Virus record (IMG/VR): IMGVR_UViG_2974703886_000001 | Coordinates: 6,374 to 70,373 of that record | Reading direction: 5' to 3' (one strand) | DNA: 64,000 bases | DNA from: a virus | Taxonomy: Duplodnaviria; Caudoviricetes | Part shown: positions 30,316 to 63,408 of the stretch, piece by piece | Layout: each line of letters starts with the position of its first letter | How positions within the stretch are numbered: the stretch's first letter is position 1 | Position numbers and translations under genes: made by a program | Notes under the pieces: generated by a model | Database searches by the model: none | Told to the model about the DNA's origin: nothing | Seen by the model: the letters and a program-made list of their open reading frames with translations, nothing else

Positions 30316-30503
30316 AGAGTTCTCTCTCCCAGCAGGAACCAGAAGTGTGTGCAGGTCACTGCACCCGCCCCCGGCGTCGTGAACCGGGGGCGTCCTCATT
30401 TCTGGGCTACTACACCTCCTCCCGGCCTCTGTCAACTGGGTTACGACCGGAACGCCATACGCTTGATGGGCAAGTAACTGATCCTTGACTTGAGGAGTTT
30501 GCA

Positions 30504-39202: not shown

Positions 39203-40464
39203 CGGAGCCGCAGCACGATCTGCAGGCTGAGCAGTCGCTTCTGGGCGCAATTCTCCAGTTCCCCAAGGTAATTCCCGATGTCGCACAGAAGGTGCAGGCA
39301 TCGGACCTGTACCTGCCCAAGCATGAGCTGGTCTTCGACGCAGCCATGCACCTGTTCAACAACGGTGACCCCGTCGATGCCACCACGGTTGCCGCCGAGC
39401 TTGACCGGCGCAAGCAACTGGTGAAGATCGGTGGGGCACCGTTCCTGTTTGAGCTGATCTCGATCCCAGTCGTCGCCGACGCCGCGCCGGTCTACGCAGG
39501 CATTGTCGCGAGCAAGTCGCGGCTGCGCCGGATCGCCGAGCTGGGCACCCGGCTGCAATCGGCCAGCAATGACATGGAAGCCGACGAAGCCGTCGCCGCT
39601 CTCCACCAGTTCATGGACGAGCTGGAGATTGAAAAGGAGTGTGGCGCTGAGGGTTTCCAGGATGTCTACGAAGACTGGCTGGAGTGGCAGGAGTCGCCCG
39701 ATGTCGACCCGCCGATCCCGACGCCCTGGTACGAGGTCAACGAGGAGCTGACGGGCGGCTACCACCGGCAGCGCTTGTACATCGTCGGCGCTCGTCCCGG
39801 CTGCGGCAAGTCGAACTGGGGCCTGAACAGCGTCCTGCACGCCGCCATGGCGGGCTATAGCACCATGGTGTTCAGCCTGGAGATGCCCAAGAACGAGGTG
39901 ATGTCCAGGCTCCTGGCCTCCGGTGCCCGCGTCCCGCTCAAGGACATCATCCGGCGGCGCATGACCGGCGAGGATCTGGCCAAGGTGCATCGCTTCATGG
40001 CGTCGACCGGCAACTACAAGATCACCATCAACGACGACCCAGGCCACACCATCGAGACGATCATGGCCGCGTGCCGCGCCCAGAAGCGCGAGGGGCTGGA
40101 CCTGGTGTTCATCGACTACGCACAGCTCCTGCAGGCGTCTGACCCGAAAGCGCAGCGGTACCAACAGGTTGCGTGGATCAGCAAGATGGCGAAGATCATG
40201 GCCCGCCGCCTGAACGTCGCCGTCATCCTTGCCTGCCAACTGAATCGAGAATCGGAGAAAGAGAAGCGCATGCCACGTATGAGTGACCTGCGTGAGTCCG
40301 GCGACCTGGAAGCGGACGCCGACGCAATCGTGATGCTGACTCGCGGAGACGACGAGGACGACTTCGGAATCATCAAGGCGTGCTTCGTGAAGAACCGCAC
40401 CGGAACGCCGGATGCCGTTGTGCCGCTTGAGGAACGGTTCCACATCGCGAGGCTGGGCGCATGA
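39199..40464 (+). CDS. dnaB: DnaB-like replicative helicase
   Basis: GARPGCGKS, FIDYAQL, QLNR, DLRESGDLEADAD. Confidence 0.93.
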   Translation: MTEPQHDLQAEQSLLGAILQFPKVIPDVAQKVQASDLYLPKHELVFDAAMHLFNNGDPVDATTVAAELDRRKQLVKIGGAPFLFELISIPVVADAAPVYAGIVASKSRLRRIAELGTRLQSASNDMEADEAVAALHQFMDELEIEKECGAEGFQDVYEDWLEWQESPDVDPPIPTPWYEVNEELTGGYHRQRLYIVGARPGCGKSNWGLNSVLHAAMAGYSTMVFSLEMPKNEVMSRLLASGARVPLKDIIRRRMTGEDLAKVHRFMASTGNYKITINDDPGHTIETIMAACRAQKREGLDLVFIDYAQLLQASDPKAQRYQQVAWISKMAKIMARRLNVAVILACQLNRESEKEKRMPRMSDLRESGDLEADADAIVMLTRGDDEDDFGIIKACFVKNRTGTPDAVVPLEERFHIARLGA

Positions 40465-40775
40465 AGCTCTGGCAGCACGGCAACGAGTGGGTGAGCTACG
40501 CCAACTGTGGCGGTGTCATCGACCACATCCTCCCTCCGGAGCGCGAGGACGACGGCCCGGTGGCCGACCAGGAGAAGGTCGAGTTCATCTGCAACAAGTG
40601 CCAGGTCCGGCCCGAGTGCGCCAAGTGGGCTGTCCGCAAACAGGCGCACGGCGTGTGGGCCTGCGGCAGGTACATCCCCGGCCACGACGAGGACCGGCGG
40701 CAGGCGAACAGGGTCCGCAGAGAGTTAGCTGAGACGATCCACCTCGAGCTGGCCCGCAGGGGCGACGACTTCTGA
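40461..40775 (+). CDS. whiB: WhiB-family regulator
   Basis: C...CxxCxVxxEC; GVWACG. Confidence 0.75.
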   Translation: MKLWQHGNEWVSYANCGGVIDHILPPEREDDGPVADQEKVEFICNKCQVRPECAKWAVRKQAHGVWACGRYIPGHDEDRRQANRVRRELAETIHLELARRGDDF

Positions 40776-40848: not shown

Positions 40849-41280
40849 ATGACACAGGCACGCAAACGGAGCCGCAAGTCGGCGCGGGCGGCGGGGTCGC
40901 GATTCAACCGAGAGATCGCGACGTACCTCCGAGACCAGCTTAAAGACGAGGCGATCATCAAGTCGCCGTCCTGGGGAGCCAAGGATAAGGGCGATGTCTG
41001 GAACGTCCGCTTCCATGGTCAGAGGGTCGTTATAGAGACTAAAGACGTTGCTCGCGTCTGTCTTCCGCAATGGACAGAAGAAGCTAATATGGAGGCACAC
41101 AACGCAGAGGCCCTGGCGGGGCTGGTGATTCACAAGCGTCACGGCGTCAGTGATCCCGGCAAACAGTGGGTTAGCTGCACTGTGGACGATCTAGTGGCCC
41201 TCTTCACGGGAGAGCCATCGAAGAGAGTGAGGGAGAGAGCAAAGGATGACCGCGCCGATCATCGAGACGAAGGCGACTGA
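40849..41280 (+). CDS. Holliday junction resolvase-like PD-(D/E)XK nuclease
   Basis: G.RFNRE...DKGD...IETK. Confidence 0.7.
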   Translation: MTQARKRSRKSARAAGSRFNREIATYLRDQLKDEAIIKSPSWGAKDKGDVWNVRFHGQRVVIETKDVARVCLPQWTEEANMEAHNAEALAGLVIHKRHGVSDPGKQWVSCTVDDLVALFTGEPSKRVRERAKDDRADHRDEGD

Positions 41281-41824
41281 CGACTGGCGTACCCGTCGCA
41301 TCTGCGACACCACGGTGGCCCACCTGTTCGATGAAGACGACGACGGAAGCTACCCGTTCGAGGCCGAGGCCAAGCGGATCTGCGGCAACTGCCCGGTTCG
41401 CAACCTGTGCCTGAACGAGGCGATGAAATCCCGTGAGGATTACGGGATTTGGGGCGGACTGAACCCCAAGGAACGTGAGCGCTACCGCAAGATGTGGAAG
41501 CTGCAGAACCCGCAGACCCAGGCCCAGAAGGTTCGCCGTCGCGGCGGGGTGATGAACACCGCGTCGGCTGAGGCCCGGTACGACGCCCGCCTCGCCAAGG
41601 CCCGCGCCGCCCGCGAGCGTCTGCTGATTCTGCCCGAGGACTACTCGCTCCGCATCGAGAAGGTCGGCACCTACAGCCGCAACCAGTTCCTCCAGGTGAT
41701 CGACATGGTGATCGCCAACCCGACGTTGGACGCGGCGTCCCTCGCGGCCCGCGTGAACCGTTCCCAGACCTGGCTGAACGGAATCCTCAACGGAATCTTC
41801 AAGGAATTCAAGGTGAGCGCGTGA
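41246..41824 (+). CDS. whiB: WhiB-family regulator with C-terminal extension
   Basis: AKRICGNCPVRNLC...YGIWGG. Confidence 0.85.
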   Translation: MTAPIIETKATDDWRTRRICDTTVAHLFDEDDDGSYPFEAEAKRICGNCPVRNLCLNEAMKSREDYGIWGGLNPKERERYRKMWKLQNPQTQAQKVRRRGGVMNTASAEARYDARLAKARAARERLLILPEDYSLRIEKVGTYSRNQFLQVIDMVIANPTLDAASLAARVNRSQTWLNGILNGIFKEFKVSA

Positions 41825-52554: not shown

Positions 52555-52585
52555 TGCTAGCACTCGCCAAATGTGAGTGCCAGCA
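52555..52585. promoter_or_regulatory. Dyad upstream of integrase (operator or att candidate)
   Basis: tgctagcactc-N9-gagtgccagca, 10/11 match. Confidence 0.45.
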
Positions 52586-52668
52586 CACTTTCTACCTGCG
52601 GTTTCATCTGTCCATATACCGGGTACAAAGATAGTCACGAATTGGCTACACTCAGGGGTATGGGAGAG

Positions 52669-54102
52669 ATGGAAGCCACCACCAAAGCCGCTGTGTATCT
52701 GCGGCAGTCCATCGACAGGACTGGCGAGGGCTTAGCTGTCGACCGCCAGCGGGAGGACTGCCTGAAGCTGTGCGAGGACAAGGGATGGGAGCCGGTCGAG
52801 TACGTCGACAACGACGTGTCGGCGAGCACCGGCAAGCCCCGGCCTGCCTACAAGCAGATGCTGGCCGACATCCGGTCTGGTGCCGTCCAGGCCGTCGTCG
52901 CCTGGAACCTGGACCGGCTGCACCGAAGACCGATTGAGTTGGAGGAGTTCATTGAACTCGCCAACAAGCACAAGGTCGCCCTGGCCACCGTCAGCGGGGA
53001 CACCGATCTGTCGACGGATTCAGGCCGGTTTTACGCCCGTATGCTGGGCGTCGTGGCGCGGCACGAGATGGAGCGGAAGTCGGCTCGCCAGAAGGCGGCG
53101 CACCGTCAGCGTGTGAAGCAGGGGAGGCCCTGGTGGTCCGGCCCGCCGCCGTTCGGCTACGAGGCCGACGAGGGGCACGAGAACATCCGGATCAACAAGG
53201 AAGAGGCCAAGCTGATCCGGAAGGCGTACCGGGACGTGCTCAAGGGCGTGGCCATTCACACCATCGCCAAGGAGTGGAATGCCCAGGGCGTCAAGACGCG
53301 TCGGGGTAACGACTGGGCCGGTCCTACTGTCCGGCAGTTCTTGGCCAACCCTCGCAACGCTGGCCTGAAGGTGTACCTGGGCGAGGTTGTCGGCAAGGCT
53401 CCGTGGCCCGCGATCATTGACGAGGCCACCTACAAGTCCTACATGGCCTACGTGAAGGCTCCTGGGCGCGGCCCAGGCAAGCCCCTGGCCCGCAAGCACC
53501 TGCTGTCCGGAATTGCCCGCTGTGGGCGCTGTGGGGGCCGTATGGGCGTGGGTATGACTGGGCGTAAGTACTACGACGAGAACGGCAAGGAGCACCGCGT
53601 CGACACGTACGCGTGCAAGATCTGCTTCAAGGTCAGCCGGGACCGCCGCAAGACCGACGAGGTGGTGCGGGCAGTGATGATCAAGCTGCTGTCTCAGCCG
53701 GACGCCCTGGCCCTGGCTGCACGTCCGGAGCTGCCGAACGTCCAGGAGCTGCTGGAGGAGGCCAATACCATCCGCGACCGGATGGACAACCTGGCCGTCG
53801 AGTTCGCAGATGGTGGCATCACCGCCTCTCAGATGAGGATCGCCAACGAGCGTCTGCAGGACCGCCTGGAAGAGGTCGAGCGGAAGCTCGTGGACGTGAA
53901 CTCACGACGCGTCTTGGATGGCGTGATCGGCGTGAAGGATGTTGCCGCCCGCTGGGATAGTTTGCCGGTGGAGCGTCGTCGCGCCATCGTTGAGACCATC
54001 GCGACGGTGACCATTCAGCCCACGGTTCGCGGTCGCCCGTTTGACCCGTCTCTCATCGAGATCCGTAGGCGCTTCCCAGAAGAGGCCCCGAATGGCCTCT
54101 AG
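52669..54102 (+). CDS. int: Large serine integrase (alternative leaderless start at 52660)
   Basis: YLRQS catalytic Ser; DNDVSAS; RP.Y..ML; LLSGIARCGRC; Y.CKIC. Confidence 0.95.
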   Translation: MEATTKAAVYLRQSIDRTGEGLAVDRQREDCLKLCEDKGWEPVEYVDNDVSASTGKPRPAYKQMLADIRSGAVQAVVAWNLDRLHRRPIELEEFIELANKHKVALATVSGDTDLSTDSGRFYARMLGVVARHEMERKSARQKAAHRQRVKQGRPWWSGPPPFGYEADEGHENIRINKEEAKLIRKAYRDVLKGVAIHTIAKEWNAQGVKTRRGNDWAGPTVRQFLANPRNAGLKVYLGEVVGKAPWPAIIDEATYKSYMAYVKAPGRGPGKPLARKHLLSGIARCGRCGGRMGVGMTGRKYYDENGKEHRVDTYACKICFKVSRDRRKTDEVVRAVMIKLLSQPDALALAARPELPNVQELLEEANTIRDRMDNLAVEFADGGITASQMRIANERLQDRLEEVERKLVDVNSRRVLDGVIGVKDVAARWDSLPVERRRAIVETIATVTIQPTVRGRPFDPSLIEIRRRFPEEAPNGL

Positions 54103-54293: not shown

Positions 54294-54581
54294 CTACCGG
54301 TTCTTGACGGCCATCGCCAGGGCGACAACCCAGCCGACGAATGTCCAGCCCAGCAGCAGATTTATAACCACTACCGGGCCGAGCAGGTGGGACTGCCTGG
54401 CCTGGGCGATGAAGGTCGGCACCAGGTAGGTCGCGACCCCCAGGCCCAGGATCGCCAGGCCGGGGTACTGGTGGGTGAGCACCGCTCCGATCAGGACGGC
54501 GAGCACGACCGCCAGTGTGAGTGCCAGCCGGGTGTTGCGGCTGTGCTTGGGACGCTGCGGGTAGTACGGGTAGTTGGTCAT
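54294..54581 (-). CDS. T4 Imm-like superinfection immunity membrane protein
   Basis: YLVPTFIAQAR...INLLLGWTFVGWVVAL matches the Imm_superinfect pattern. Confidence 0.8.
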   Translation of the reverse strand: MTNYPYYPQRPKHSRNTRLALTLAVVLAVLIGAVLTHQYPGLAILGLGVATYLVPTFIAQARQSHLLGPVVVINLLLGWTFVGWVVALAMAVKNR

Positions 54582-54787
54582 CTCTCTCCTTCGTATTCGA
54601 ATCGTGGACGTTTGGGGCGGGGTGCCGAGGTGAAGTGGACCCCGCCACAACAGCAGCGGTAGGGCGACTCGACCTTGCGTTTGGTCTTGCCCTTCTTGTT
54701 GCGGCGCAACATGTCCTGTCGCACCGACAGGGCCTCGCCCATGTTGCGGAACGTGCGCTTGTACGGCGTCGGACACTCGCGTCTCAT
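54578..54787 (-). CDS. Small basic Cys/His protein
   Basis: PYRC.C...HFT; ATGA overlaps. Confidence 0.6.
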   Translation of the reverse strand: MRRECPTPYKRTFRNMGEALSVRQDMLRRNKKGKTKRKVESPYRCCCGGVHFTSAPRPKRPRFEYEGER

Positions 54788-55086
54788 GCGGCCTCAGCCT
54801 CCTTGGCCCGCTTTCGTTCGGCGGCGATGTTCTTCGCCGTCCGGTTGATGCGGTGGACGCGCCGGATCTTCTCGGGGTAGAAGGTTCGGAAGGTCTCGTA
54901 GCCGAATGGCCCGCCGACGAAGGTCAGGTTCAGCCTGCCGTCCTTGGTGTACCGGGCGTACTTGAACCGGAACCGGCCACGCTCGCCCTTGATGGACACC
55001 TCAGTGTCGACGGTCAGCAGCTTGCCGTTCACCTCGACCTCCTTGAGGCAGTCGAAGTGAATCTTCTTGCTGCGCTTGACGTTCAT
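54784..55086 (-). CDS. Hypothetical protein
   Basis: GGGAGAGAAC RBS. Confidence 0.7.
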   Translation of the reverse strand: MNVKRSKKIHFDCLKEVEVNGKLLTVDTEVSIKGERGRFRFKYARYTKDGRLNLTFVGGPFGYETFRTFYPEKIRRVHRINRTAKNIAAERKRAKEAEAA

Positions 55087-55152
55087 GTTCTCTCCCTCTC
55101 TGGTGTCGGTGAATTGCGTTGATGCTATGCCGATCTGGTGATCAGTCGGCAT

Positions 55153-55187
55153 GAAGAAGCCCCGGCAGTCCTTGTGACTACCGGGGC
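55153..55187 (-). terminator. Leftward intrinsic terminator
   Basis: gccccgg / ccggggc stem, then CTTCTTC on the minus strand. Confidence 0.55.
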
Positions 55188-55212
55188 GTTGTCCTATTCA
55201 GTTTTCGCAGAG

Positions 55213-55232
55213 CAGTAAATAACCCACTGCCG
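55213..55232 (-). repeat. Conserved 19-mer copy 1 (CGGCAGTGGGTTATTACTG, one extra base)
   Basis: cagtaaataacccactgccg. Confidence 0.9.
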
Positions 55233-55236
55233 GGGG

Positions 55237-55302
55237 CTATCTGGCGACCCCAAGGGCCGCGATCACGAGGCCGAGGGCGGCCCCGAGGGTCATCGCAGTC
55301 AC
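55237..55302 (-). CDS. Putative ~20-aa membrane peptide
   Basis: AAGGAG RBS; MTLGAALGLVIAALGVAR. Confidence 0.35.
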   Translation of the reverse strand: MTAMTLGAALGLVIAALGVAR

Positions 55303-55946
55303 ACCACACTCCTTTCCGCAATTCGTGCGATTTCCTCTACTGGTGGCGCATGCTTCCTCAGCTTGCCTGCCGACGTGCAACGGACCTTGCGCCCGCACAC
55401 GGGGCACACTTCGTAGTCGCCGTCGTAGCGCCAGGGCATCCAGGTGCCGGTGCCTGGGCACTGCGTCGTCGGTCGGCGTCCGTACATGGTCCACTCGACA
55501 GGTACGCCGGGGAAGCATGACCGGCACAGGCGTGGGCCGTGCGCGGCGACCACGTCCTCTGTCGGTCTGCCTGAGAACTCAGCGAGCATGATCAGACGGG
55601 TGTGCTCTCCGATCTTGATGCACTCGCGGGTGCTGTGGATGTGGTTGCTTCGCACCTTGTAGTAGCGAGACCAGCGTCCGTGTGCAGCCCAGCGTCTGTC
55701 GGAGTACCGGATCACACTCTCCCAGTGGGCGATCTCAGTATCGAGGTGAGCCAGCCTGGCAAGCTGGGTCTCGGTGGCACGGCAAAGCGCATCCTCGTCG
55801 GACAGGCTGAGCCGTAGATCCCCTTGCTGGAAGTGAATCCGCCGCATCAGGCTGTCGCGGTCGATCAGGGCGTCATTGCACCGCTCGACCGCCTTCGCCA
55901 ACTCCACGTCGTTCTCCCGGATATCACTGATGGCCATGGCGACCAT
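55299..55946 (-). CDS. Hypothetical Cys-rich protein
   Basis: HIHSTREC, LCRSCF, CPGTG, CPVCG; RBS GGGAGG. Confidence 0.75.
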   Translation of the reverse strand: MVAMAISDIRENDVELAKAVERCNDALIDRDSLMRRIHFQQGDLRLSLSDEDALCRATETQLARLAHLDTEIAHWESVIRYSDRRWAAHGRWSRYYKVRSNHIHSTRECIKIGEHTRLIMLAEFSGRPTEDVVAAHGPRLCRSCFPGVPVEWTMYGRRPTTQCPGTGTWMPWRYDGDYEVCPVCGRKVRCTSAGKLRKHAPPVEEIARIAERSVV

Positions 55947-56280
55947 TCATCCCTCCCTAGTTACATGGTCGCCCGCCGTAACAGACGAGTCTCCACGGGG
56001 AGCGACCGCCCACCCTACCCCTGGTTTGAGGCAGGTCAGACCACAGCGTTTCCGCTGGTCAAGTCCTACTTCTACGGGTCAACAACCCCCGTGATGGGCG
56101 AGAGAGTATCACGTCAAGTCCTGCCGATAAGGAGCAAAGGAGCAAATCCGTTGGTCTATCTATCCACATCAAGATCATGCATCAAGATCTGGATAGATTC
56201 ATCTTGCCGAGAACCCTCTCGCGCTGGTGCCCGTGCCGGGGCCGATGTCCGGTTACGGCTCTAGTTCACGGGCCTGTTGC

Positions 56281-56427
56281 TCAGGCAGGCTTGCGATCAA
56301 GCCACTGGTTGCAGTTGTGGCAAATCGGCACCTGCCCGAGCGTCGGGTGCCAGCGAGTGGTCTTGGCTGTCAGCGGGCAGCCCTCGTGCCACTGGCATGG
56401 CACCTCCCTCTCATTCATCGCCGCCAT
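56281..56427 (-). CDS. 48-aa Zn-finger-like protein
   Basis: C...C...HP..G.VP.C..C; RBS GGAGG. Confidence 0.55.
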   Translation of the reverse strand: MAAMNEREVPCQWHEGCPLTAKTTRWHPTLGQVPICHNCNQWLDRKPA

Positions 56428-56695
56428 CGTCTGCCTCCACGTCGACCCAGTTGTCGGCGAACAGCCACAGTTCGAACTCCCAGGGCACCCCGTCGAGGGC
56501 CTGGGGAGTCCAGTAGATGGCGGGCACCATCTCCATGGTCTCCAGGTTGACGGCCTGACCCTCACGGACCCGATAGACCTGCAGTGGGTGCGCCCACCGG
56601 TCGGGCTTCGGGAACGGATCATCGGGTGACACGCGGTCGTTGATGATCTTGTCCCCGGCCTGGATGTCCTTGGCCTGCTTGCGAACTACTGCCAT
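56411..56695 (-). CDS. Hypothetical protein
   Basis: RBS GGAGG. Confidence 0.65.
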   Translation of the reverse strand: MAVVRKQAKDIQAGDKIINDRVSPDDPFPKPDRWAHPLQVYRVREGQAVNLETMEMVPAIYWTPQALDGVPWEFELWLFADNWVDVEADDGGDE

Positions 56696-56697
56696 GG

Positions 56698-56991
56698 TCA
56701 CGCGTCCTCCCATACCACGTCGGCACGAGCGCTTTCCAGCTCAGCCTTGAGATCCCGGTACACCTTCCGTGCCCAGTCCACCCCGTCGAACGTGATGTCG
56801 AACAGGGCGTCGTTGAACAGCCGCTCGAGGTCGTCGTCCCCGTCGGCGAGTGCCGCCACCAGCCGGAAGATCCGGTCCTCGTGGGCCTGGTACACCTCGT
56901 GGACGTACGGCTGTGCCGCGTTGGCCTCGTAGCGCTTGATGTTCTCGGCGACGATGGCCTCGATCAGGGCGTCGATCAGCTTGGTATCCAT
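56698..56991 (-). CDS. Hypothetical protein
   Basis: GGGAGAGAACAATG start. Confidence 0.75.
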   Translation of the reverse strand: MDTKLIDALIEAIVAENIKRYEANAAQPYVHEVYQAHEDRIFRLVAALADGDDDLERLFNDALFDITFDGVDWARKVYRDLKAELESARADVVWEDA

Positions 56992-57108
56992 TGTTCTCTC
57001 CCATGTGTCGTGTTCCGCAGTTCCGCTGCGGCCCGGTTGTGCTGAGCGCACAAGCAGGTGGCCACTGGCTGTGTCGACAGTGACCACCCTTGCCCGCTCA
57101 GAACGGGG

Positions 57109-57354
57109 TCAGATGTACGAACCGTCTGCCGGGAACGTCAGGCCGGTGGCCAGACGCTCTATCAGTGCGGGCACCTCGTCGGCAGGCACCTCAAACAGGT
57201 GCTCTTCCTTGGATTCCCGCTTCGTCCACTGCACGCCGCGACCAGTGACGGGGATGGTGGTGACCTCCCGGCTGATCACGATGGTGTCGTCCGTCGTCCG
57301 GTGGACGTGGTACTCGACCTCGACCCGACGCTCGCCGTTCGTCTCGACGCTCAT
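57109..57354 (-). CDS. Hypothetical protein
   Basis: AGGAG RBS; ATGA overlap. Confidence 0.65.
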   Translation of the reverse strand: MSVETNGERRVEVEYHVHRTTDDTIVISREVTTIPVTGRGVQWTKRESKEEHLFEVPADEVPALIERLATGLTFPADGSYI

Positions 57355-57524
57355 GCTGCACTCCTGATGTGTTGCGGCAGTTCCCAATTCGAGTAGCCCA
57401 GGTAGTCCCAGAAGACCAGAACGGCGGTGTCGTTGTACAGCCCGCCGCGTGTCTCCAGGACGGTGCCCGTCTTGCTGGTGTCACGGGAGTCCGTGACCTT
57501 CTGCTTGGTTGCGAATGCGATCAT
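57351..57524 (-). CDS. 57-aa hypothetical protein
   Basis: GGAGAGAACAATG start; not in ORF track. Confidence 0.65.
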   Translation of the reverse strand: MIAFATKQKVTDSRDTSKTGTVLETRGGLYNDTAVLVFWDYLGYSNWELPQHIRSAA

Positions 57525-57559
57525 TGTTCTCTCCTTGTCTCTCTTGCGTTTTCGCAGAT

Positions 57560-57578
57560 CAGTAATAATCCACTGCCG
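57560..57578 (-). repeat. Conserved 19-mer copy 2
   Basis: cagtaataatccactgccg. Confidence 0.9.
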
Positions 57579-57619
57579 AGGGTGGCCCAGACCTTCTGGA
57601 CCACCCTCGTCAGCCTCAC

Positions 57620-58060
57620 TCAGCCGTCCCAGCCGTCCGGCACATTGCCCGGTGTCCAGTCGTCATAGTCCCAGGTCAATATGCGGATGATGCTGCCGAG
57701 CAACCACGTGTCACTGTGGGCGTACTCCTCGCGCCCATACTCCAGGGTGCGGGCGGACGCCACGCTGGACAGGTACGAACTCACTTCGTGATTGCCATCA
57801 GCCCAGAGTTCCCACTCCTTCCAGAACACGGGCACCGTGGCACCGCGCCGGTCACCACGGAACCGGTAGTCGAAGTGGATCACCAGCTCTCGGTAGCCGC
57901 GCCGGAACACGAACGTGTCGGTTGCGGACACGTTGTCCTCACCCCAGACCTTGACCCCACGATGGATGTACGGACCCTCCTCGGGCACGTTCTGCTCGTG
58001 GTGGGTCTGCTTCCAGCCGTTGGCTTCGGCGACCTGCTGAATGATGGCGATGTCATCCAT
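57620..58060 (-). CDS. Hypothetical protein
   Basis: GGGAGAGAGAACAATG start. Confidence 0.75.
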   Translation of the reverse strand: MDDIAIIQQVAEANGWKQTHHEQNVPEEGPYIHRGVKVWGEDNVSATDTFVFRRGYRELVIHFDYRFRGDRRGATVPVFWKEWELWADGNHEVSSYLSSVASARTLEYGREEYAHSDTWLLGSIIRILTWDYDDWTPGNVPDGWDG

Positions 58061-58157
58061 TGTTCTCTCTCCCATTGTGTGAACCTCCGTTGTCCCTCAA
58101 CGGATTTGGAGGTGCCCCAGACCATATGGCTTGGGGCACAACCAGACTCGCTGAGAG

Positions 58158-58508
58158 TCACACGTACACCGCACGGTGCGCCAGGATGGCCACGTCGGAC
58201 CCCTCGAAGGGTTCCTCGGTGTCGGCGTAGACGAACCGGTCGTACTTGTACGGGTTGTACGTCACCTTGCGTGCGGAGCTGTCGAACGTGACAGCTTCGC
58301 CCAGCACCCAGTCACCGACAATCCCGGCGTGAACGTTCTTCTTGCGTTCCCGCAGGACACGCTGGCGACCAGCCTCGGACACCTTGCCCTCGGCGTTGCG
58401 GAGCACCACAACCTGGCTGTGTCCGACGACACGGCCCTTGTCCGGCCCCTCCAGGGCCTTGATGCTCCACAGGTGGCGGTGCAGGTTGTAGTACACGAAC
58501 ACACGCAT
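58158..58508 (-). CDS. Conserved phage hypothetical protein
   Basis: VYYNLH..LWS...GRQRVLRE.KKNVHA...YNPY. Confidence 0.8.
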   Translation of the reverse strand: MRVFVYYNLHRHLWSIKALEGPDKGRVVGHSQVVVLRNAEGKVSEAGRQRVLRERKKNVHAGIVGDWVLGEAVTFDSSARKVTYNPYKYDRFVYADTEEPFEGSDVAILAHRAVYV

Positions 58509-58557
58509 TGTTCTCTCTCCCTTGGTGATTGGGCGTCGACCGTGTATCGACGCGTAG

Positions 58558-58625
58558 CGCACCGTGGGTGGAGTCGAACCACCAGCAGCAGTAATAACCC
58601 ACTGCCGCAGCCAGATTCACGGGCG
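58558..58625 (-). ncRNA. D-arm-less tRNA-like element B (contains 19-mer copy 3, 58589-58607)
   Basis: GGTGG-TTCGACT-CCACC T-arm; closing CGCCCGTG/CACGG(T)GCG stem; 8-bp middle hairpin. Confidence 0.55.
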
Positions 58626-58636
58626 TCCCGAGGGGG

Positions 58637-59140
58637 TCAGGAGGGGTAGTCCTCGTAGTCCTCGGGGGTGATCACCGTGAGCGGTGACCCGAGCTTTCGC
58701 TCGTTTATCGGGGACGGGTGCAAGCCGCCGCCCAGACGGACCACAACGTCCGTTTCGACCAAGCCCCAGGTGAACCCCTTCGCCCGGTCGCGAGCTGCCC
58801 GCTGAGCGCCCTTGCGGGCCTCAGACGGGTTGAACCAGCGGACGCCGTCGCCCTTGCCGACACGCACCGTCGCGCCGTAGCGGGTGTCGACCCAGCTCCA
58901 GTCATCGACCGGGTTGCCATCGGCGTCGAACAACCAGCGCAAGGTGGTGCGACCGCCCGTCTCGGCCAGCTCTGCAAGGTGGTTGTAGAGCTGGGCCATC
59001 GTGACGTGCGCCCACTGGGACAGGAACCCATCGGTGTCGCTGCGTTCCCAGCTTTCCTGTTCGCGCTGGTAGCTCTGCTTGGCCATCGCCCGCCATTCCT
59101 CGGCGGTGTGATCAGTCGGCTTGTAGTAGTGCGTACCCAT
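58637..59140 (-). CDS. Hypothetical protein
   Basis: SWERSDTDGFLSQWA; conserved RBS. Confidence 0.75.
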   Translation of the reverse strand: MGTHYYKPTDHTAEEWRAMAKQSYQREQESWERSDTDGFLSQWAHVTMAQLYNHLAELAETGGRTTLRWLFDADGNPVDDWSWVDTRYGATVRVGKGDGVRWFNPSEARKGAQRAARDRAKGFTWGLVETDVVVRLGGGLHPSPINERKLGSPLTVITPEDYEDYPS

Positions 59141-59179
59141 TTCTTCTCTCTCCCTTCATTCTTCGTGGTTGGTGATACG

Positions 59180-59220
59180 AAAAATGCTGAAGGGCACTGA
59201 CTCTCAAGCCAGCGCCCTTC
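59180..59220 (-). terminator. Hairpin / possible terminator
   Basis: gaagggc / gcccttc stem, then CAGCATTTTT on the minus strand. Confidence 0.45.
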
Positions 59221-59232
59221 CGTACTCTCCGA

Positions 59233-59397
59233 TCACCTGGTGATCAGGGTCACCGTCCTCAGGTGTGGACGGACCAGCGTCACCCCACCGTTCGGCTTGC
59301 GGACAGTCAGTGCTCCAGGCTTGGCCTGGACCACGGTGCCCACCCATCCCTTCGGTGATGCGTCACTGACGTGAACCTGCGCACCCTCCCAGAACAT
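59233..59397 (-). CDS. 54-aa SH3-like hypothetical protein
   Basis: Conserved RBS. Confidence 0.65.
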   Translation of the reverse strand: MFWEGAQVHVSDASPKGWVGTVVQAKPGALTVRKPNGGVTLVRPHLRTVTLITR

Positions 59398-59486
59398 TGT
59401 TTCTCTCCCATCTCGTGAGTGAAAACGGTGAACACTCAACCACTCTCAGATCAGGTGACCCGAGAGTGGTTGCGAACCCAGCGTTT

Positions 59487-59645
59487 TCAGAACGGCGGGT
59501 CGTCGTACTCGGTGCCGGGCGGCAGCTTTGGTGTCGGCGGGCACTCCTGGCGTGCCAGCGCCAGCAGTACCGCCCGGTCCTGTTTGAATTGCGGGCACTC
59601 GCAGTAGTCGCGGGGCTGCCCGCAGCACGGTGCAATGGCAGACAT
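59487..59645 (-). CDS. 52-aa Cys-rich hypothetical protein
   Basis: AAGGA RBS; CCGQPRDYCEC. Confidence 0.5.
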   Translation of the reverse strand: MSAIAPCCGQPRDYCECPQFKQDRAVLLALARQECPPTPKLPPGTEYDDPPF

Positions 59646-59683
59646 GGGGTCAGTGTCCTTCGATCCGGTGATAACCCCGGCAG

Positions 59684-59702
59684 CAGTAATAACCCACTGC
59701 CG
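59684..59702 (-). repeat. Conserved 19-mer copy 4
   Basis: cagtaataacccactgccg. Confidence 0.95.
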
Positions 59703-59713
59703 GGGCCTGACGA

Positions 59714-60058
59714 CTAGCTGATGTCCCACTCGGGATGGTCGATGTACTCGATGGAGACCGCGCCAGCGTTGCCCATCCCGAAGTCTCCGAGGGGGGCGTA
59801 CGCGTACTCCTCCCTCATGTCTCCGTTCCAGTAGAGGGTGCCGCTGTAGTACAAGACTCGGTCGTCGTCGTACATCCGGAACGAAACCTGGTGTTCGTAG
59901 TTCGTGCCTAGCTCATCCCACTTTTGGGCGATGCGCTCGGCCTCATCCGAGAGGTTCGCGTCCGCTGGACCCACGGTGCCTTTGTCGTTCCAGCTCGGGT
60001 CATCTCCCGGCTCGAACAGGTGATCCTTGTCGATGATCCATGCGTACGGTGATGCCAT
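59714..60058 (-). CDS. Hypothetical protein
   Basis: FRMYDDD...YY.G...PL.DFG..NAG...IEY; conserved RBS. Confidence 0.8.
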   Translation of the reverse strand: MASPYAWIIDKDHLFEPGDDPSWNDKGTVGPADANLSDEAERIAQKWDELGTNYEHQVSFRMYDDDRVLYYSGTLYWNGDMREEYAYAPLGDFGMGNAGAVSIEYIDHPEWDIS

Positions 60059-60150
60059 TTCTCTCTCCCATCGTGAGGTGGTTGTGAGACAGCCCGATTA
60101 GGCAGCTCAGTGGCTCACTCGGACGGTGTGCCCGAGTGGCCAAGTGCGGT

Positions 60151-60414
60151 CTAAGCGGTGAGGGGTCGACGGTTCAGGCTGGCGTAGCCAAACGCGTTGT
60201 TGATAGCCAGGACGTAGTCCAGGCCGCCGACGTTCACGTTGTGCGTGTAATCCGAAGTGCCCCAAGGCTCGCCGTCCCGAGTGTGGGCATAGTCGGTCTC
60301 GTCGCCGTAGTCCCACTGGGCCAAGTGTTCGGCCAGCTCCTGGATGCCCAGGTCCGAAACCGCGGCGTACTCGCTGTCCTGGATGAACGCAGCTTCCACC
60401 CACAGATTGCTCAT
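60151..60414 (-). CDS. Hypothetical protein
   Basis: Conserved RBS. Confidence 0.75.
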   Translation of the reverse strand: MSNLWVEAAFIQDSEYAAVSDLGIQELAEHLAQWDYGDETDYAHTRDGEPWGTSDYTHNVNVGGLDYVLAINNAFGYASLNRRPLTA

Positions 60415-60443
60415 TTCCACTCTCTCCCTTCGGTTTTCGTGTT

Positions 60444-60530
60444 GGGTAATAACCCACTGCCGGTGAGAGTCGCAGGGCAGTAATAACCCACTGCCGGTGA
60501 AATTTGCAGATCAGTAATAACCCACTGCCG
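60444..60530 (-). repeat. Conserved 19-mer copies 5-7 at exact 34-bp spacing
   Basis: Starts at 60444, 60478 and 60512. Confidence 0.95.
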
Positions 60531-60591
60531 GGGCCTGCCGAAGGCCCATATGTAGGGGGTCTAAGTATCCGGTTTGGACCTGGTTCGGTCC

Positions 60592-60620
60592 ACTATACCC
60601 AGCGACTTAGGGTACCCTAA
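60592..60620 (-). promoter_or_regulatory. Putative leftward -10 (TATAGT) with adjacent perfect 14-bp palindrome TTAGGGTACCCTAA
   Basis: actata at 60592-60597; palindrome at 60607-60620. Confidence 0.4.
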
Positions 60621-60778
60621 TGCGATGCGATAGTTAGAGGGTCTATGCATCCCCAGTGGGCAGATTACACGGGCGTAATTCCCTGCCGACTCTCCCAGGT
60701 GACTCGCACACGTGTGCGACTAGGCCACCAATACGGGCACCTGGGCAGCTCGCCCAGGTACTCGTCTTGACAGTCCAG

Positions 60779-60949
60779 TCATCGCGCAGTGCGTTCCTGT
60801 TTCGCCCATCGAATTGCCGCATCGAAAGCGAGAATTGGCAACACGTAGAGCACAACACCAATTGCCCAGTGGACTGCTGCCAGATTGGCAGCCGACACCA
60901 ATGCGGCAATGGTGATCAGAACCACGAAAGCAATGCGTGCCAGTGTCAT
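60779..60949 (-). CDS. 56-aa membrane protein
   Basis: Two TM helices; conserved RBS. Confidence 0.7.
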   Translation of the reverse strand: MTLARIAFVVLITIAALVSAANLAAVHWAIGVVLYVLPILAFDAAIRWAKQERTAR

Positions 60950-61048
60950 TTCACTCTCTCCCATCGTGTGAATCGGATTGCCCGATTAGGCAACCAATAG
61001 CGCCACCTGGGCAGTGACTCCCAGGTGGCACGATGGCTGTCTAATCCG

Positions 61049-61219
61049 TCACGAATTCGCCCAGAGAACGCGGTCAACAGTGTTGGCCGGACTCCTGCCC
61101 CTGTCGTAATCCTCACGGTACGGATAGTCCGGTAGATCACTGATGGACACTCGCAATTTCCGTTGAACCATACGGTCAACAGTGGCGAGCCATTCCGCGT
61201 AAGTCTCAGTGCGTGCCAT
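61049..61219 (-). CDS. 56-aa hypothetical protein
   Basis: EW...VD......S.SDLPD..YR..YD.G.SP; conserved RBS; not in ORF track. Confidence 0.75.
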   Translation of the reverse strand: MARTETYAEWLATVDRMVQRKLRVSISDLPDYPYREDYDRGRSPANTVDRVLWANS

Positions 61220-61306
61220 TTCTCTCTCCCATCGTTGTGTGTTGAGTGAACCCGTTTAGGTCACTAAGCGGACACACGGACAATTGCCCGTGTGCCCGAT
61301 AGCGAT

Positions 61307-61918
61307 CTAATCCGCTTTCCCTCGAATTGCGATCCAAACTGCAGCTTGCATAGTCGACGGTGCGACTCCCGCATTGGCTGCAGCTTTCCGGTAAGCGTCC
61401 GAAATGCGTTCGTACGCGCCTGCCCAAGAGAGTGTCTGTTCCGCTTGTTCGGTGGTCACGTCCCCCAGGGCAGCACGCGCTGCCCAAATATCGACAGTGA
61501 CCGCATTCCCGTTTCCAAGAATGTTCTGGGCGAAACTCCAGATCTTGGGTGCCGTGAGTTTTTCCGGATTGGTTCCGCGCAATGCGTAGACAGGATTGTC
61601 ACTCGCGAGAATTCGCAATGCTCGCTTGTGATTTTCTGCCATGACACCGTTGCGCTTGTCCTTGCCGCGCAACAGGTTGTCCGCATCCAACAGGTTGTCA
61701 ATCCACCGAGTACGTGGAGAGTACGCGGCAATGACAGCCGCAACCTGTTCAACCGTGTGTCCAGTCTCATCGGCAGTACGTTCTGCCCAAGTGTGAGCGT
61801 CGACGTACCATGACGCACCCGCATTCCGCATCCATTGTTCAGCCGACTCCCAAAGTGTCGATATACGGATTGCCATTTCCTCAACGCTCAGTGAGTCGGA
61901 CTTGCGTGCGCGTGCCAT
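61307..61918 (-). CDS. Hypothetical protein, possibly HhH-glycosylase-like helical fold
   Basis: WY...AVIAAYSP..W..N; VTVDIWA; MQAAVW. Confidence 0.75.
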   Translation of the reverse strand: MARARKSDSLSVEEMAIRISTLWESAEQWMRNAGASWYVDAHTWAERTADETGHTVEQVAAVIAAYSPRTRWIDNLLDADNLLRGKDKRNGVMAENHKRALRILASDNPVYALRGTNPEKLTAPKIWSFAQNILGNGNAVTVDIWAARAALGDVTTEQAEQTLSWAGAYERISDAYRKAAANAGVAPSTMQAAVWIAIRGKAD

Positions 61919-62010
61919 TTCTCTCTCCCATCGTGGTTGGTGAATCCCCTGTGGAATAAGTCACAGGAGAAAACACACTCGGAATTTCCGAGTGTGCTTT
62001 CCTCAGTGGC

Positions 62011-62412
62011 TTATGCCGCTTGCCGTGCGGGCACGGGCACCGGAATTTCGACTTGCTCGACACTGTCCCAGATCGCTAGCTCGCCGCGTTCCTGGGCGAA
62101 GAACAGTGCTTTGTCCAGATCCTCGAAAGACTCGACAATGTCGACGTAGGTCAAACCATCGTTGACCCAAGTGCCCAATGCGTAGTCGGGAGTCCACACT
62201 CCCCGCAGGTCTGCCAGCTCGCGAATAGCACTGGCCAGTGCGCTAGGTCCATCAGCGACAGGGACGGTGCGCACGTGTGGCTTACCGACAGCAACCGTGT
62301 ACCGGTAGGGCAGCTTGTGCGCACGGAATACGTCACGTCCGTACGTTCCCCCACCATTGGCCAGAGTGTCGACAGCCATAGCGAAATGCTGATCAACGGT
62401 ATTGATGTTCAT
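62011..62412 (-). CDS. First gene of leftward operon (possible SAM-lyase-like fold)
   Basis: LGTW...YVD...A...AQ..GELAIWD; conserved RBS. Confidence 0.75.
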   Translation of the reverse strand: MNINTVDQHFAMAVDTLANGGGTYGRDVFRAHKLPYRYTVAVGKPHVRTVPVADGPSALASAIRELADLRGVWTPDYALGTWVNDGLTYVDIVESFEDLDKALFFAQERGELAIWDSVEQVEIPVPVPARQAA

Positions 62413-62522
62413 TGCACTCTCTCCCAGGTGACATGACCGGTAGTGATCCGGTCGGTTTACAGAACTGGTCTGTCTAGGAGATATGTGCTTGGACAAGCAC
62501 ATTCACGAAAGACAGACCATCG

Positions 62523-62582
62523 TGAGCACGGGCGGATTCGAACCGCAACGCGCGTGACCGCGCGCCAACCAATGCCGTGCCC
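62523..62582 (-). ncRNA. D-arm-less tRNA-like element A
   Basis: GGGCACG/CGTGCTC acceptor plus discriminator A; GCGG-TTCGAAT-CCGC T-arm; CGCGCG hairpin. Confidence 0.55.
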
Positions 62583-62947
62583 GATTTGGGAGTAGAGAGA
62601 GTTTCAAACCACCTGCTGCAGCTCAGAACGCTTATTGCAGCCAGTAGGACTTGACCCGTAAGGGTCGCCGCCCTGCCTACTGCCGAGTGTCCGCGACAGC
62701 TCCACGCAATACCGGACATGTCACCCGTACGGATACGGGGAGGGCAATCCTCACGGTCACGCGTGCTGCCAGTGCGGAATGTCTCGCACTCGGAGGTTAG
62801 TCCACTGTGTAGTTCTCAAACACCGGGGTGACGGTGCCCTTCCCCCGGAACGAACCGGGAGCGCGGCGACCGTACCGCAACGCGGCAATGTCAGTATGCG
62901 ACGACTACCGACACAGTGCAAGCACGGACAGACGAGAGTGTTGCGGT

Positions 62948-62971
62948 CACCTGGGCACCTGGGCACCTGGG
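62948..62971 (+). repeat. (CACCTGGG)x3 tandem repeat
   Basis: Read directly from sequence. Confidence 0.9.
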
Positions 62972-63391
62972 AACGGGTAGCAACGTCACGTCAGTACGTA
63001 GGTGCCAGATCTGCTAGCACTCGGCAGACAGACGAACGAGGGCACCGTAGGGCAGTGCTAGCGCACCGTGGTGCAAGCAATGTCCCAGGTCACGTGTGAA
63101 CGTCCCTGTAGGGCACGGGACGGAATGCCGCCGTATTGCCGCCCAGATCAAGATCTAAGCCACGAACACCATGTCTCGAGTGTGATTGCATAGGGCACAC
63201 CGTGATCTTGATTCTGAGGGCAATTGAGGGCCCAATAGGCCGCTAACAGGTGCTAGCAATAGTGAGCAGTATGTCTAACCATAGTTAGCTACCCAACAGT
63301 AACCGCCCGTGATCAGGCACGTTGAGCACGGCTAAGTAGTTAGCTGGGATGGTTAGACGGTCTACATGGCAGTCCTGCCTACGTAGGTAGT

Positions 63392-63408
63392 GGGTAATGC
63401 CACTGCCG
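63392..63408 (-). repeat. Degenerate 19-mer copy 8
   Basis: gggtaatgccactgccg. Confidence 0.6.

Follow-up and report, generated by a model that had tools for sequence, protein, structure and literature searches.

A repeated, co-oriented intergenic element in the leftward right-arm operon of a cluster M-like temperate mycobacteriophage as a candidate regulator-binding site

A leftward operon in the right arm of a temperate mycobacteriophage with cluster M-like architecture carries a 19-nt motif that recurs between its small genes, always in the same orientation. The question raised by this locus is what reads the motif: a protein on the DNA, a factor on the transcript, or no dedicated factor at all. 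The source record is a 70,373-bp virus genome (IMG/VR record IMGVR_UViG_2974703886_000001) that is present in NCBI as well, and the window analysed here, whose numbering is used throughout, is its right 64 kb. A first-pass annotation had described the motif as an RNA hairpin serving an antitermination, processing or repressor-binding system, a list that is too broad for testing as one. We find that a repeated, oriented and selected cis-acting site is supported, whereas the preference for an RNA hairpin is not, and no partner protein was found. Judged from its sequence, the motif is a lineage-specific, selected cis-element of the early operon. By analogy with the repeats of related phages, it is most likely a candidate binding site for a regulator. 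The motif sequence is new, while its kind, the actinobacteriophage intergenic repeat, is already known.

The motif, CGGCAGTGGGTTATTAC(TG) (19-mer CGGCAGTGGGTTATTACTG), is present in seven minus-strand copies between positions 55213 and 60530, four of them exact 19-mers and three with one or two changes. These are the seven copies first reported, at the same positions; 0.03 matches to the 19-mer would be expected by chance, and none of 100 shuffles reached six. The degenerate copy reported near 63392 was also recovered and placed at 63390–63408 (c8). One further degenerate copy was identified at 60675–60688 (c9), and no copies are present on the plus strand or in the 6.4 kb of the genome outside the window. 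According to the gene map all copies, degenerate ones included, are intergenic and co-oriented with the leftward operon, as first described. Apart from a ribosome-binding site (RBS) leader of the type CACGATGGGAGAGAGAA, the motif is the most repeated k-mer of the genome (k = 11 and 13), and the k-mer survey revealed no further repeated candidate operator in the genome.

All seven full copies lie within the leftward operon of about 20 small genes (R1–R20; 54294–62412, minus strand). Copy c1 (55213–55232) is a 20-nt version (TTATTTAC) with a 1-nt insertion in the T run and begins 5 nt after a stop codon. An intrinsic-terminator-like hairpin follows 26 nt downstream on the same strand (55159–55187), in agreement with the earlier description of this copy as lying just upstream of a terminator. 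Copy c2 (57560–57578) has one mismatch (G10>A) and is flanked by a strong hairpin on one side and by the RBS of gene 57524–57351 on the other. The exact copy c3 (58589–58607) supplies the long middle arm of a D-arm-less, tRNA-like fold, which had been noticed previously and is confirmed at 58558–58625, and the exact copy c4 (59684–59702) is contained within a 12–13-bp hairpin in a shifted register. Copies c7 (60512–60530), c6 (60478–60496) and c5 (60444–60462) constitute a tandem array with a 34-nt period (60444–60530); the first two are exact and c5 has two mismatches at its 3′ end (TG>CC). This array occupies a 364-nt non-coding gap directly upstream of gene 60414–60151. Of the degenerate copies, c8 (CGGCAGTGGCATTACCCAC) lies in the non-coding right end and retains CGGCAGTGG and ATTAC, and c9 (CGGCAGGGAATTAC) directly follows an orphan RBS-like sequence, CACCTGGGAGAG, that has no start codon. 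All of these copies are on the minus strand.

The pattern of variation indicates what has been preserved. In the alignment of the seven full copies, positions C1 to C17 are invariant except for the c2 substitution and the c1 insertion, and conservation falls off through the 3′ arm. CGGCAG is the best-kept segment, even in the degenerate copies, and the segment with which it would pair is the most poorly preserved. Copies c6 and c7 of the array match at 19 of 19 positions, while five positions differ between their 15-nt spacers; by chance, all five differences would avoid the motifs with a probability of C(15,5)/C(34,5), or approximately 0.011. Metagenomic relatives that are about 94% identical, with contigs from three DNA runs of one study, retain the three-unit array. 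These relatives were compared by their listed, best-supported differences only. The best contig has 28 such differences in the 435 nt adjoining the array and two in the array stretch, at 60443 (the base just beyond c5) and 60463 (the last spacer base, abutting c5), both outside the 19-mers. The array stretch of this contig contains no indels and at most two differences beyond those listed. This conservation is suggestive of selection and not decisive, because only the best-supported differences are displayed. Taken together, the motif is clearly selected, because it is repeated beyond chance, is invariant beside diverged spacers, and is conserved in the relatives.

The same alignment bears on whether base pairing has been the object of selection. 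The proposed GCAGT/ACTGC stem is complete only in copies 1, 3, 4 and 6; its fifth pair is a G-A mismatch in copies 2 and 7, and copy 5 has no 3′ arm. A test for compensatory change identified no pair altered on both sides, and the 77.6% of cells that were paired did not differ from shuffles, although the near-identity of the copies means that this is not a strong test. The alternation of G-U and G-C at the next pair, which had been taken to favour an RNA-level function, is one single one-sided change; with no two-sided covariation and a 5′ arm that stays invariant while its partner decays, it does not carry that conclusion. When folded in context, the canonical hairpin formed in only two or three of the nine copies and was dominant in c3 and c6 alone. 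Copy c4 adopted the shifted 12–13-bp register (CCCCGGCAGUGG/CUGCUGCCGGGG) followed by UUAU, whereas c1, c2 and c7 paired elsewhere or weakly. The mean paired probability in context was 0.77 compared to a background of 0.67, and in isolation the c2 and c7 hairpins did not exceed shuffles in stability (p = 0.13 and 0.12). We conclude that the motif is under selection for sequence rather than for pairing; a structure for it is neither shown nor excluded.

The position of the motif within the gaps is also regular. Most operon gaps contain hairpins followed by a conserved RBS leader of the CACGATGGGAGAGAGAAATG type. Where the motif is present it fills the second-hairpin slot just 5′ of this CA-rich leader, and in most other gaps that slot is taken by unrelated hairpins. 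The tails CTGCGAAAAC and CACGAAAAC reported after copies 1, 2 and 5 are indeed present, but the CGAAAAC box within them probably belongs to the RBS leader and not to the motif, because similar leaders (CACGAAAAC, AAACCGAAGGGA) occur in phage Phlei. The leader constitutes a second repeat family on the minus strand, with copies directly at right-arm start codons (58063–58083, 58511–58531, 59144, 60059–60077, 60954–60972, 61220–61238 and 61919–61937). This family is analogous to the start-associated sequences (SAS) of cluster K and to the CACACGGAGAAGGGA repeats of the cluster M phage Bongo. An extra copy of GGGAGAGAGAA, at 30320, is not followed by a start codon.

With these constraints in place, we tentatively favour a DNA-level reading in which the copies would form a stoperator-like operator set gating the early operon. 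A putative phage or host protein would bind the asymmetric 17-nt core CGGCAGTGGGTTATTAC on double-stranded DNA. The triple array would gate entry to the inner right-arm module (genes 60414 to 54294), and the single copies downstream would strengthen a block to transcription that depends on orientation, for instance in a lysogen. That a protein binds, that it acts at the DNA and not the RNA level, and that the outcome is repression are what we infer here; the data at hand do not separate DNA-level from RNA-level action.

The comparison behind this reading is with the cluster A stoperators, the 13-bp asymmetric sites of L5 and Bxb1 at which a cognate helix-turn-helix repressor binds and blocks elongation. 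Asymmetry, location in gaps and orientation with respect to transcription are common to both. Cluster A phages are likewise temperate mycobacteriophages, the sites in both extend over the leftward early right arm, and several operon gene families are shared. Cluster A genomes contain about 25–35 stoperators genome-wide and, to our knowledge, stoperators are the only actinobacteriophage intergenic repeats with a demonstrated mechanism. The likeness does not extend to the site itself. The stoperator consensus GGTGGMTGTCAAG gave five matches at two mismatches, compared to 3.8 expected, and none was at a motif copy. The motif is 17–19 nt long instead of 13, and has a triple array and hairpin potential. 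Moreover, its 7–9 copies are confined to 55213–63408, whereas stoperators number in the tens across both genome arms, and no repressor of the cluster A gp71 type was found among the proteins scanned.

The genomic setting supports a gating role for the array. The genome has a block of leftward genes at its left end and, at its right end, a 1.6-kb non-coding stretch followed by the leftward operon. Its structural genes are approximately 76% identical to those of cluster M mycobacteriophages (Bongo and PegLeg) and of some Mycobacterium abscessus prophages. A serine integrase (52573–54102) and a superinfection-immunity protein mark it as temperate, and the genome encodes a tmRNA. The operon products are mostly function-less by annotation, with DUF7178, the L5 gp82 family, DUF7246 and a superinfection-immunity domain recognised. 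Inner-module genes have counterparts in cluster A right arms, among them the L5 gp82 family and Bachome gp88. Phages Phlei, Cintron and Stasia have leftward right arms in which a homologue of gene 60414–60151, the next gene downstream of the array, is rightmost or nearly so. The 364-nt array gap is a plausible early control region, because homologues of the flanking gene end leftward right arms elsewhere and the inner genes match cluster A. The GC content is about 0.62 up to the array and about 0.555 immediately to its right, and the full motif copies are all inside the GC-richer inner module. The region affected (60400–62400) covers the four rightmost genes, whose GC content at third codon positions is lower as well, which suggests a mosaic joint at the array-bearing gap.

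Several observations weigh against the operator reading. Promoter scans placed no promoter confidently upstream of the array. The copies span only about 5–8 kb, compared to the genome-wide distribution of stoperators, and the 34-bp array spacing is not helix-phased. No helix-turn-helix (HTH) repressor was recognised among 58 open reading frames (ORFs) searched with Pfam or 10 proteins searched with PHROG, a scan that covered neither the small ORFs nor the left end. The remaining points concern RNA. A transcript of the motif can form 8 bp (GGCAGUGG/UUACUGCC, two G-U pairs included) closed by a GUUA loop, and both core changes, those of c1 and c2, fall in or beside this loop. Copies c5 and c8 possess different 3′ arms that restore 5-bp helices (each p ~0.05–0.07 compared to shuffles). 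Copy c3 is an arm of the tRNA-like fold at 58558–58625, which has an exact T-loop, GGTTCGACTCC.

These last features are the basis for a transcript-level site, which we regard as possible but doubtful. Here a stem-loop of up to 8 bp with a GUUA loop, following a single-stranded CGG, would be read by an RNA-binding factor in a nut- or ESAS-like manner (ESAS, extended SAS), and would affect read-through of terminator hairpins, processing, or the stability or translation of the next cistron. The loop-centred changes in c1 and c2, and the pairing of the conserved 5′ strand with different 3′ arms in c5, c8 and, by yet another arm, c9, are what such a site would show. The extended helices of c3 and c4 are also in its favour, that of c3 being the middle arm of a tRNA-like fold with a minimum free energy of −33.4 kcal/mol (z = −2.05). 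So are the occupation of the second-hairpin slot just 5′ of the RBS leader and the location of c1 26 nt upstream of the strongest terminator, the 3′ arm of which complements the 5′ flank and arm of c1. Copy c1 in addition contains a boxA-like TGCTCT. On the other side, variation is one-sided and mostly pair-breaking, with no compensatory pair; the isolated c2 and c7 hairpins match shuffles in stability; and folding in context leaves c3 and c6 as the only copies with a dominant canonical hairpin, the pairing registers varying among copies. A search of Rfam 15 returned the tmRNA as the only match passing the threshold, and the motif copies had no match even at E ≤ 10. No N-like arginine-rich or other RNA-binding protein was recognised among the proteins scanned, and seven copies contrast with one nut site per early promoter.

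Two known systems are informative for this alternative. By position, the cluster K SAS/ESAS elements are the closest analogue, with an imperfect inverted repeat immediately upstream of an RBS-associated leader (PMC3203893). ESAS and the motif are alike in serving a subset of genes, in having one orientation and in keeping the left arm better than the right (PMC3203893). The arms of ESAS are 17 nt with a variable spacer of 4–13 nt, however, while those of the motif are 6–8 nt with an invariant loop of 4–8 nt. The SAS consensus GGGATAGGAGCCC, which lies 3–8 nt before start codons, gave only chance-level matches here, and the lineage differs. The function of ESAS was without experimental test as of 2025 (PMC12699233). 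In cluster M phages, stem-loops are found upstream of the conserved repeats CR1–CR4, and inserted genes carry their own repeat (PMC7953290). This arrangement, which speaks for a transcript-level site, is seen in Bongo, where each gap has hairpins followed by the RBS-linked repeat CACACGGAGAAGGGA. The counterpart of that repeat in the present phage is CACGATGGGAGAGAGAAATG instead of the 19-mer, which Bongo lacks apart from loose resemblances such as GGGCAGTGAATTAC in one gap. The repeats of cluster O are symmetric and non-oriented (PMC4351075), unlike the motif. The second system, the lambda nut site (boxA plus the boxB hairpin), resembles the motif as a short, co-oriented hairpin of an early transcript, located upstream of terminators and with a conserved loop and 5′ arm. 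A nut site occurs once per early promoter and has a 5-bp stem, a pentaloop and the N protein as partner, whereas there are seven copies of the motif with a GUUA or 8-nt loop, and a boxA-like sequence accompanies c1 only.

A related proposal spans both levels of action. The system may have evolved separately, such that a non-HTH or otherwise unrecognised protein reads the 17-nt site either as a DNA roadblock or as a multi-site RNA signal; we consider this rather unlikely. If true, it would let a cluster-M-like phage both gate and punctuate an early operon that is full of terminator-like hairpins.

An improbable alternative requires no dedicated factor. The copies would be decayed intergenic hairpins or terminators that travelled with gene cassettes and were kept as short homologies through which recombination rearranges the small early genes, in the manner of promoter early stem-loop (PeSL) or repetitive extragenic palindromic (REP) elements. 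Several observations are in its favour. In the contig of one relative, 57057–57548 is replaced by 271 unrelated letters, affecting two small genes downstream of c2, and homology resumes at 57549, the end of the CTGCGAAAA tail and about 11 nt past the 3′ end of c2. Copy c9 follows an orphan RBS without a gene. Downstream of c1 there is first a decayed leader and next the terminator at 55159–55187, whose arms (CCCCGGTAGT/ACTGCCGGGG) are close to those of the motif plus flank, with a different loop. The array gap opens with a duplicate of the module of the preceding gap, and the repeat copies brought in by inserted genes of cluster M phages (PMC7953290) fit the same picture. T4-type PeSL cassettes and REP elements are, like the motif, short intergenic hairpins beside small accessory genes and at recombination junctions. 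The motif differs from them in that it contains no promoter, no RAYT-type transposase was seen, and its core is far better kept than its flanks. Neutral relics would be expected to lose the 17-nt invariance along with the diverging spacers and 3′ arms. Such a pattern could also arise by gene conversion, which would not account for the conservation of the array relative to adjacent coding DNA in the relatives. The one junction documented is in a low-depth contig.

Partial duplications of intergenic modules occur between gaps of the operon, including a 32-nt repeat with 84% identity (60717–60748 and 60983–61014) and a TGCCTAATCGGGC box at about 60100 and about 60985. These duplications are consistent with cassette-like shuffling.

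Conserved, co-oriented intergenic motifs of 17–23 nt are typical of phage-specific promoters and nick sites. Other roles on DNA (promoters for a modified RNA polymerase, strand-specific nick sites of the T5 or phiKMV type, or replication iterons) are nevertheless highly improbable: the length, orientation and position of the motif would suit a promoter or nick site, the triple array is iteron-like, and three HNH endonucleases and DUF7178 (glycosylase or endonuclease according to other annotators) are encoded, but no TANNNT −10 element was read by eye on either motif strand or at a fixed distance downstream, promoter scans placed no site at any copy, neither a phage RNA polymerase nor a sigma factor appeared among the 58 ORFs scanned, the scattering of single copies across 5 kb does not resemble an origin, and a 34-nt spacing leaves too little room for three independent promoters. 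The promoter scans likewise gave no sigma-70 or TANNNT promoter within the motif or close to it. Pairing of the motif with the phage tmRNA was also considered and rejected, as complementarity was not above background (p = 0.19).

Returning to the operator reading that we favour, a partner for the motif was sought among the encoded proteins. The Pfam and PHROG scans identified RecA, DnaB, SSB, ERF and three HNH endonucleases, and detected neither a sigma factor nor a phage RNA polymerase. The sole regulators found were two WhiB-like proteins. One of these (41246–41824, plus strand) has a WhiB domain fused to a C-terminal segment of approximately 110 amino acids that is HTH-like by eye (PHROG 10071), and the second, shorter WhiB is encoded at 40461–40775; either could be a DNA-binding regulator. 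Searches of PDB sequences with the products of R1 and R2 gave nothing useful. The single-sequence AlphaFold model of R2 was too poor for searching (pLDDT, the predicted local distance difference test score, of 42), and the Atlas returned DUF7178 only.

The motif appears to be restricted to this lineage. Exact 16–18-mer scans of IMG/VR, JGI metagenomes and GTDB genomes returned only single, unrelated matches at chance level, as judged by BLAST and a check of context. A blastn search with the array against 50,697 phage records gave no match, nor did a full-text literature search for the motif sequence. Among the sequencing runs, no RNA run was listed as containing the phage. The right-arm proteins have no close mates in 90% protein clusters, and none from the metagenomic relatives. 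One further match is of interest. Gene 166 of the related prophage prophiT49-2 contains a 17-nt sequence, CCCGGCAGTGGGTTATT (L031:14707–14725), that is identical to the motif plus 5′ flank and is found at no other place in that 80-kb genome; the probability of a chance match over 15 nt is ~1e-4 to 1e-3. It is situated inside coding sequence (AARQWVIE), in a DUF7178 homologue of window gene 61918–61307.

The element adds to the intergenic repeat families of actinobacteriophages, which include stoperators, SAS/ESAS, the cluster M conserved repeats and the cluster O palindromes. It offers a compact study case, in which a single operon contains seven near-identical sites, three of them in an array at a module boundary, and the outcome might carry over to the cluster K and cluster M repeats. 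It would also have a bearing on early-gene silencing in temperate mycobacteriophages, which is relevant to engineered lytic derivatives.

The DUF7178 protein (R2; gene 61307–61918, minus strand) is all-helical, and many cluster A, Gordonia and Rhodococcus phages encode a homologue close to the right end of the genome. The family is widespread, and the annotations given by others conflict (endonuclease, glycosylase or glycosyltransferase). Loci encoding DUF7178 yielded only relatives at 29–37% identity.

Folds that resemble a tRNA without a D-arm occur twice in the leftward transcript, at 58558–58625 and at 62524–62582 (minus strand), with the exact T-loops GGTTCGACTCC and GGTTCGAATCC, respectively. 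A right-arm gap of Phlei (L030:1975–2020) contains a similar minihelix composed of an acceptor and a T-arm. These folds may be substrates of RNase P or of the CCA enzyme.

The best promoter candidate within the operon is at 56095–56135 on the minus strand, in a 334-nt gap upstream of the gene for a 215-amino-acid zinc-ribbon protein (55946–55299). It consists of an extended −10 element, TGaTACTCT, and a −35 element, TTATCG, and its −35 region is overlapped by CGGCAGG.

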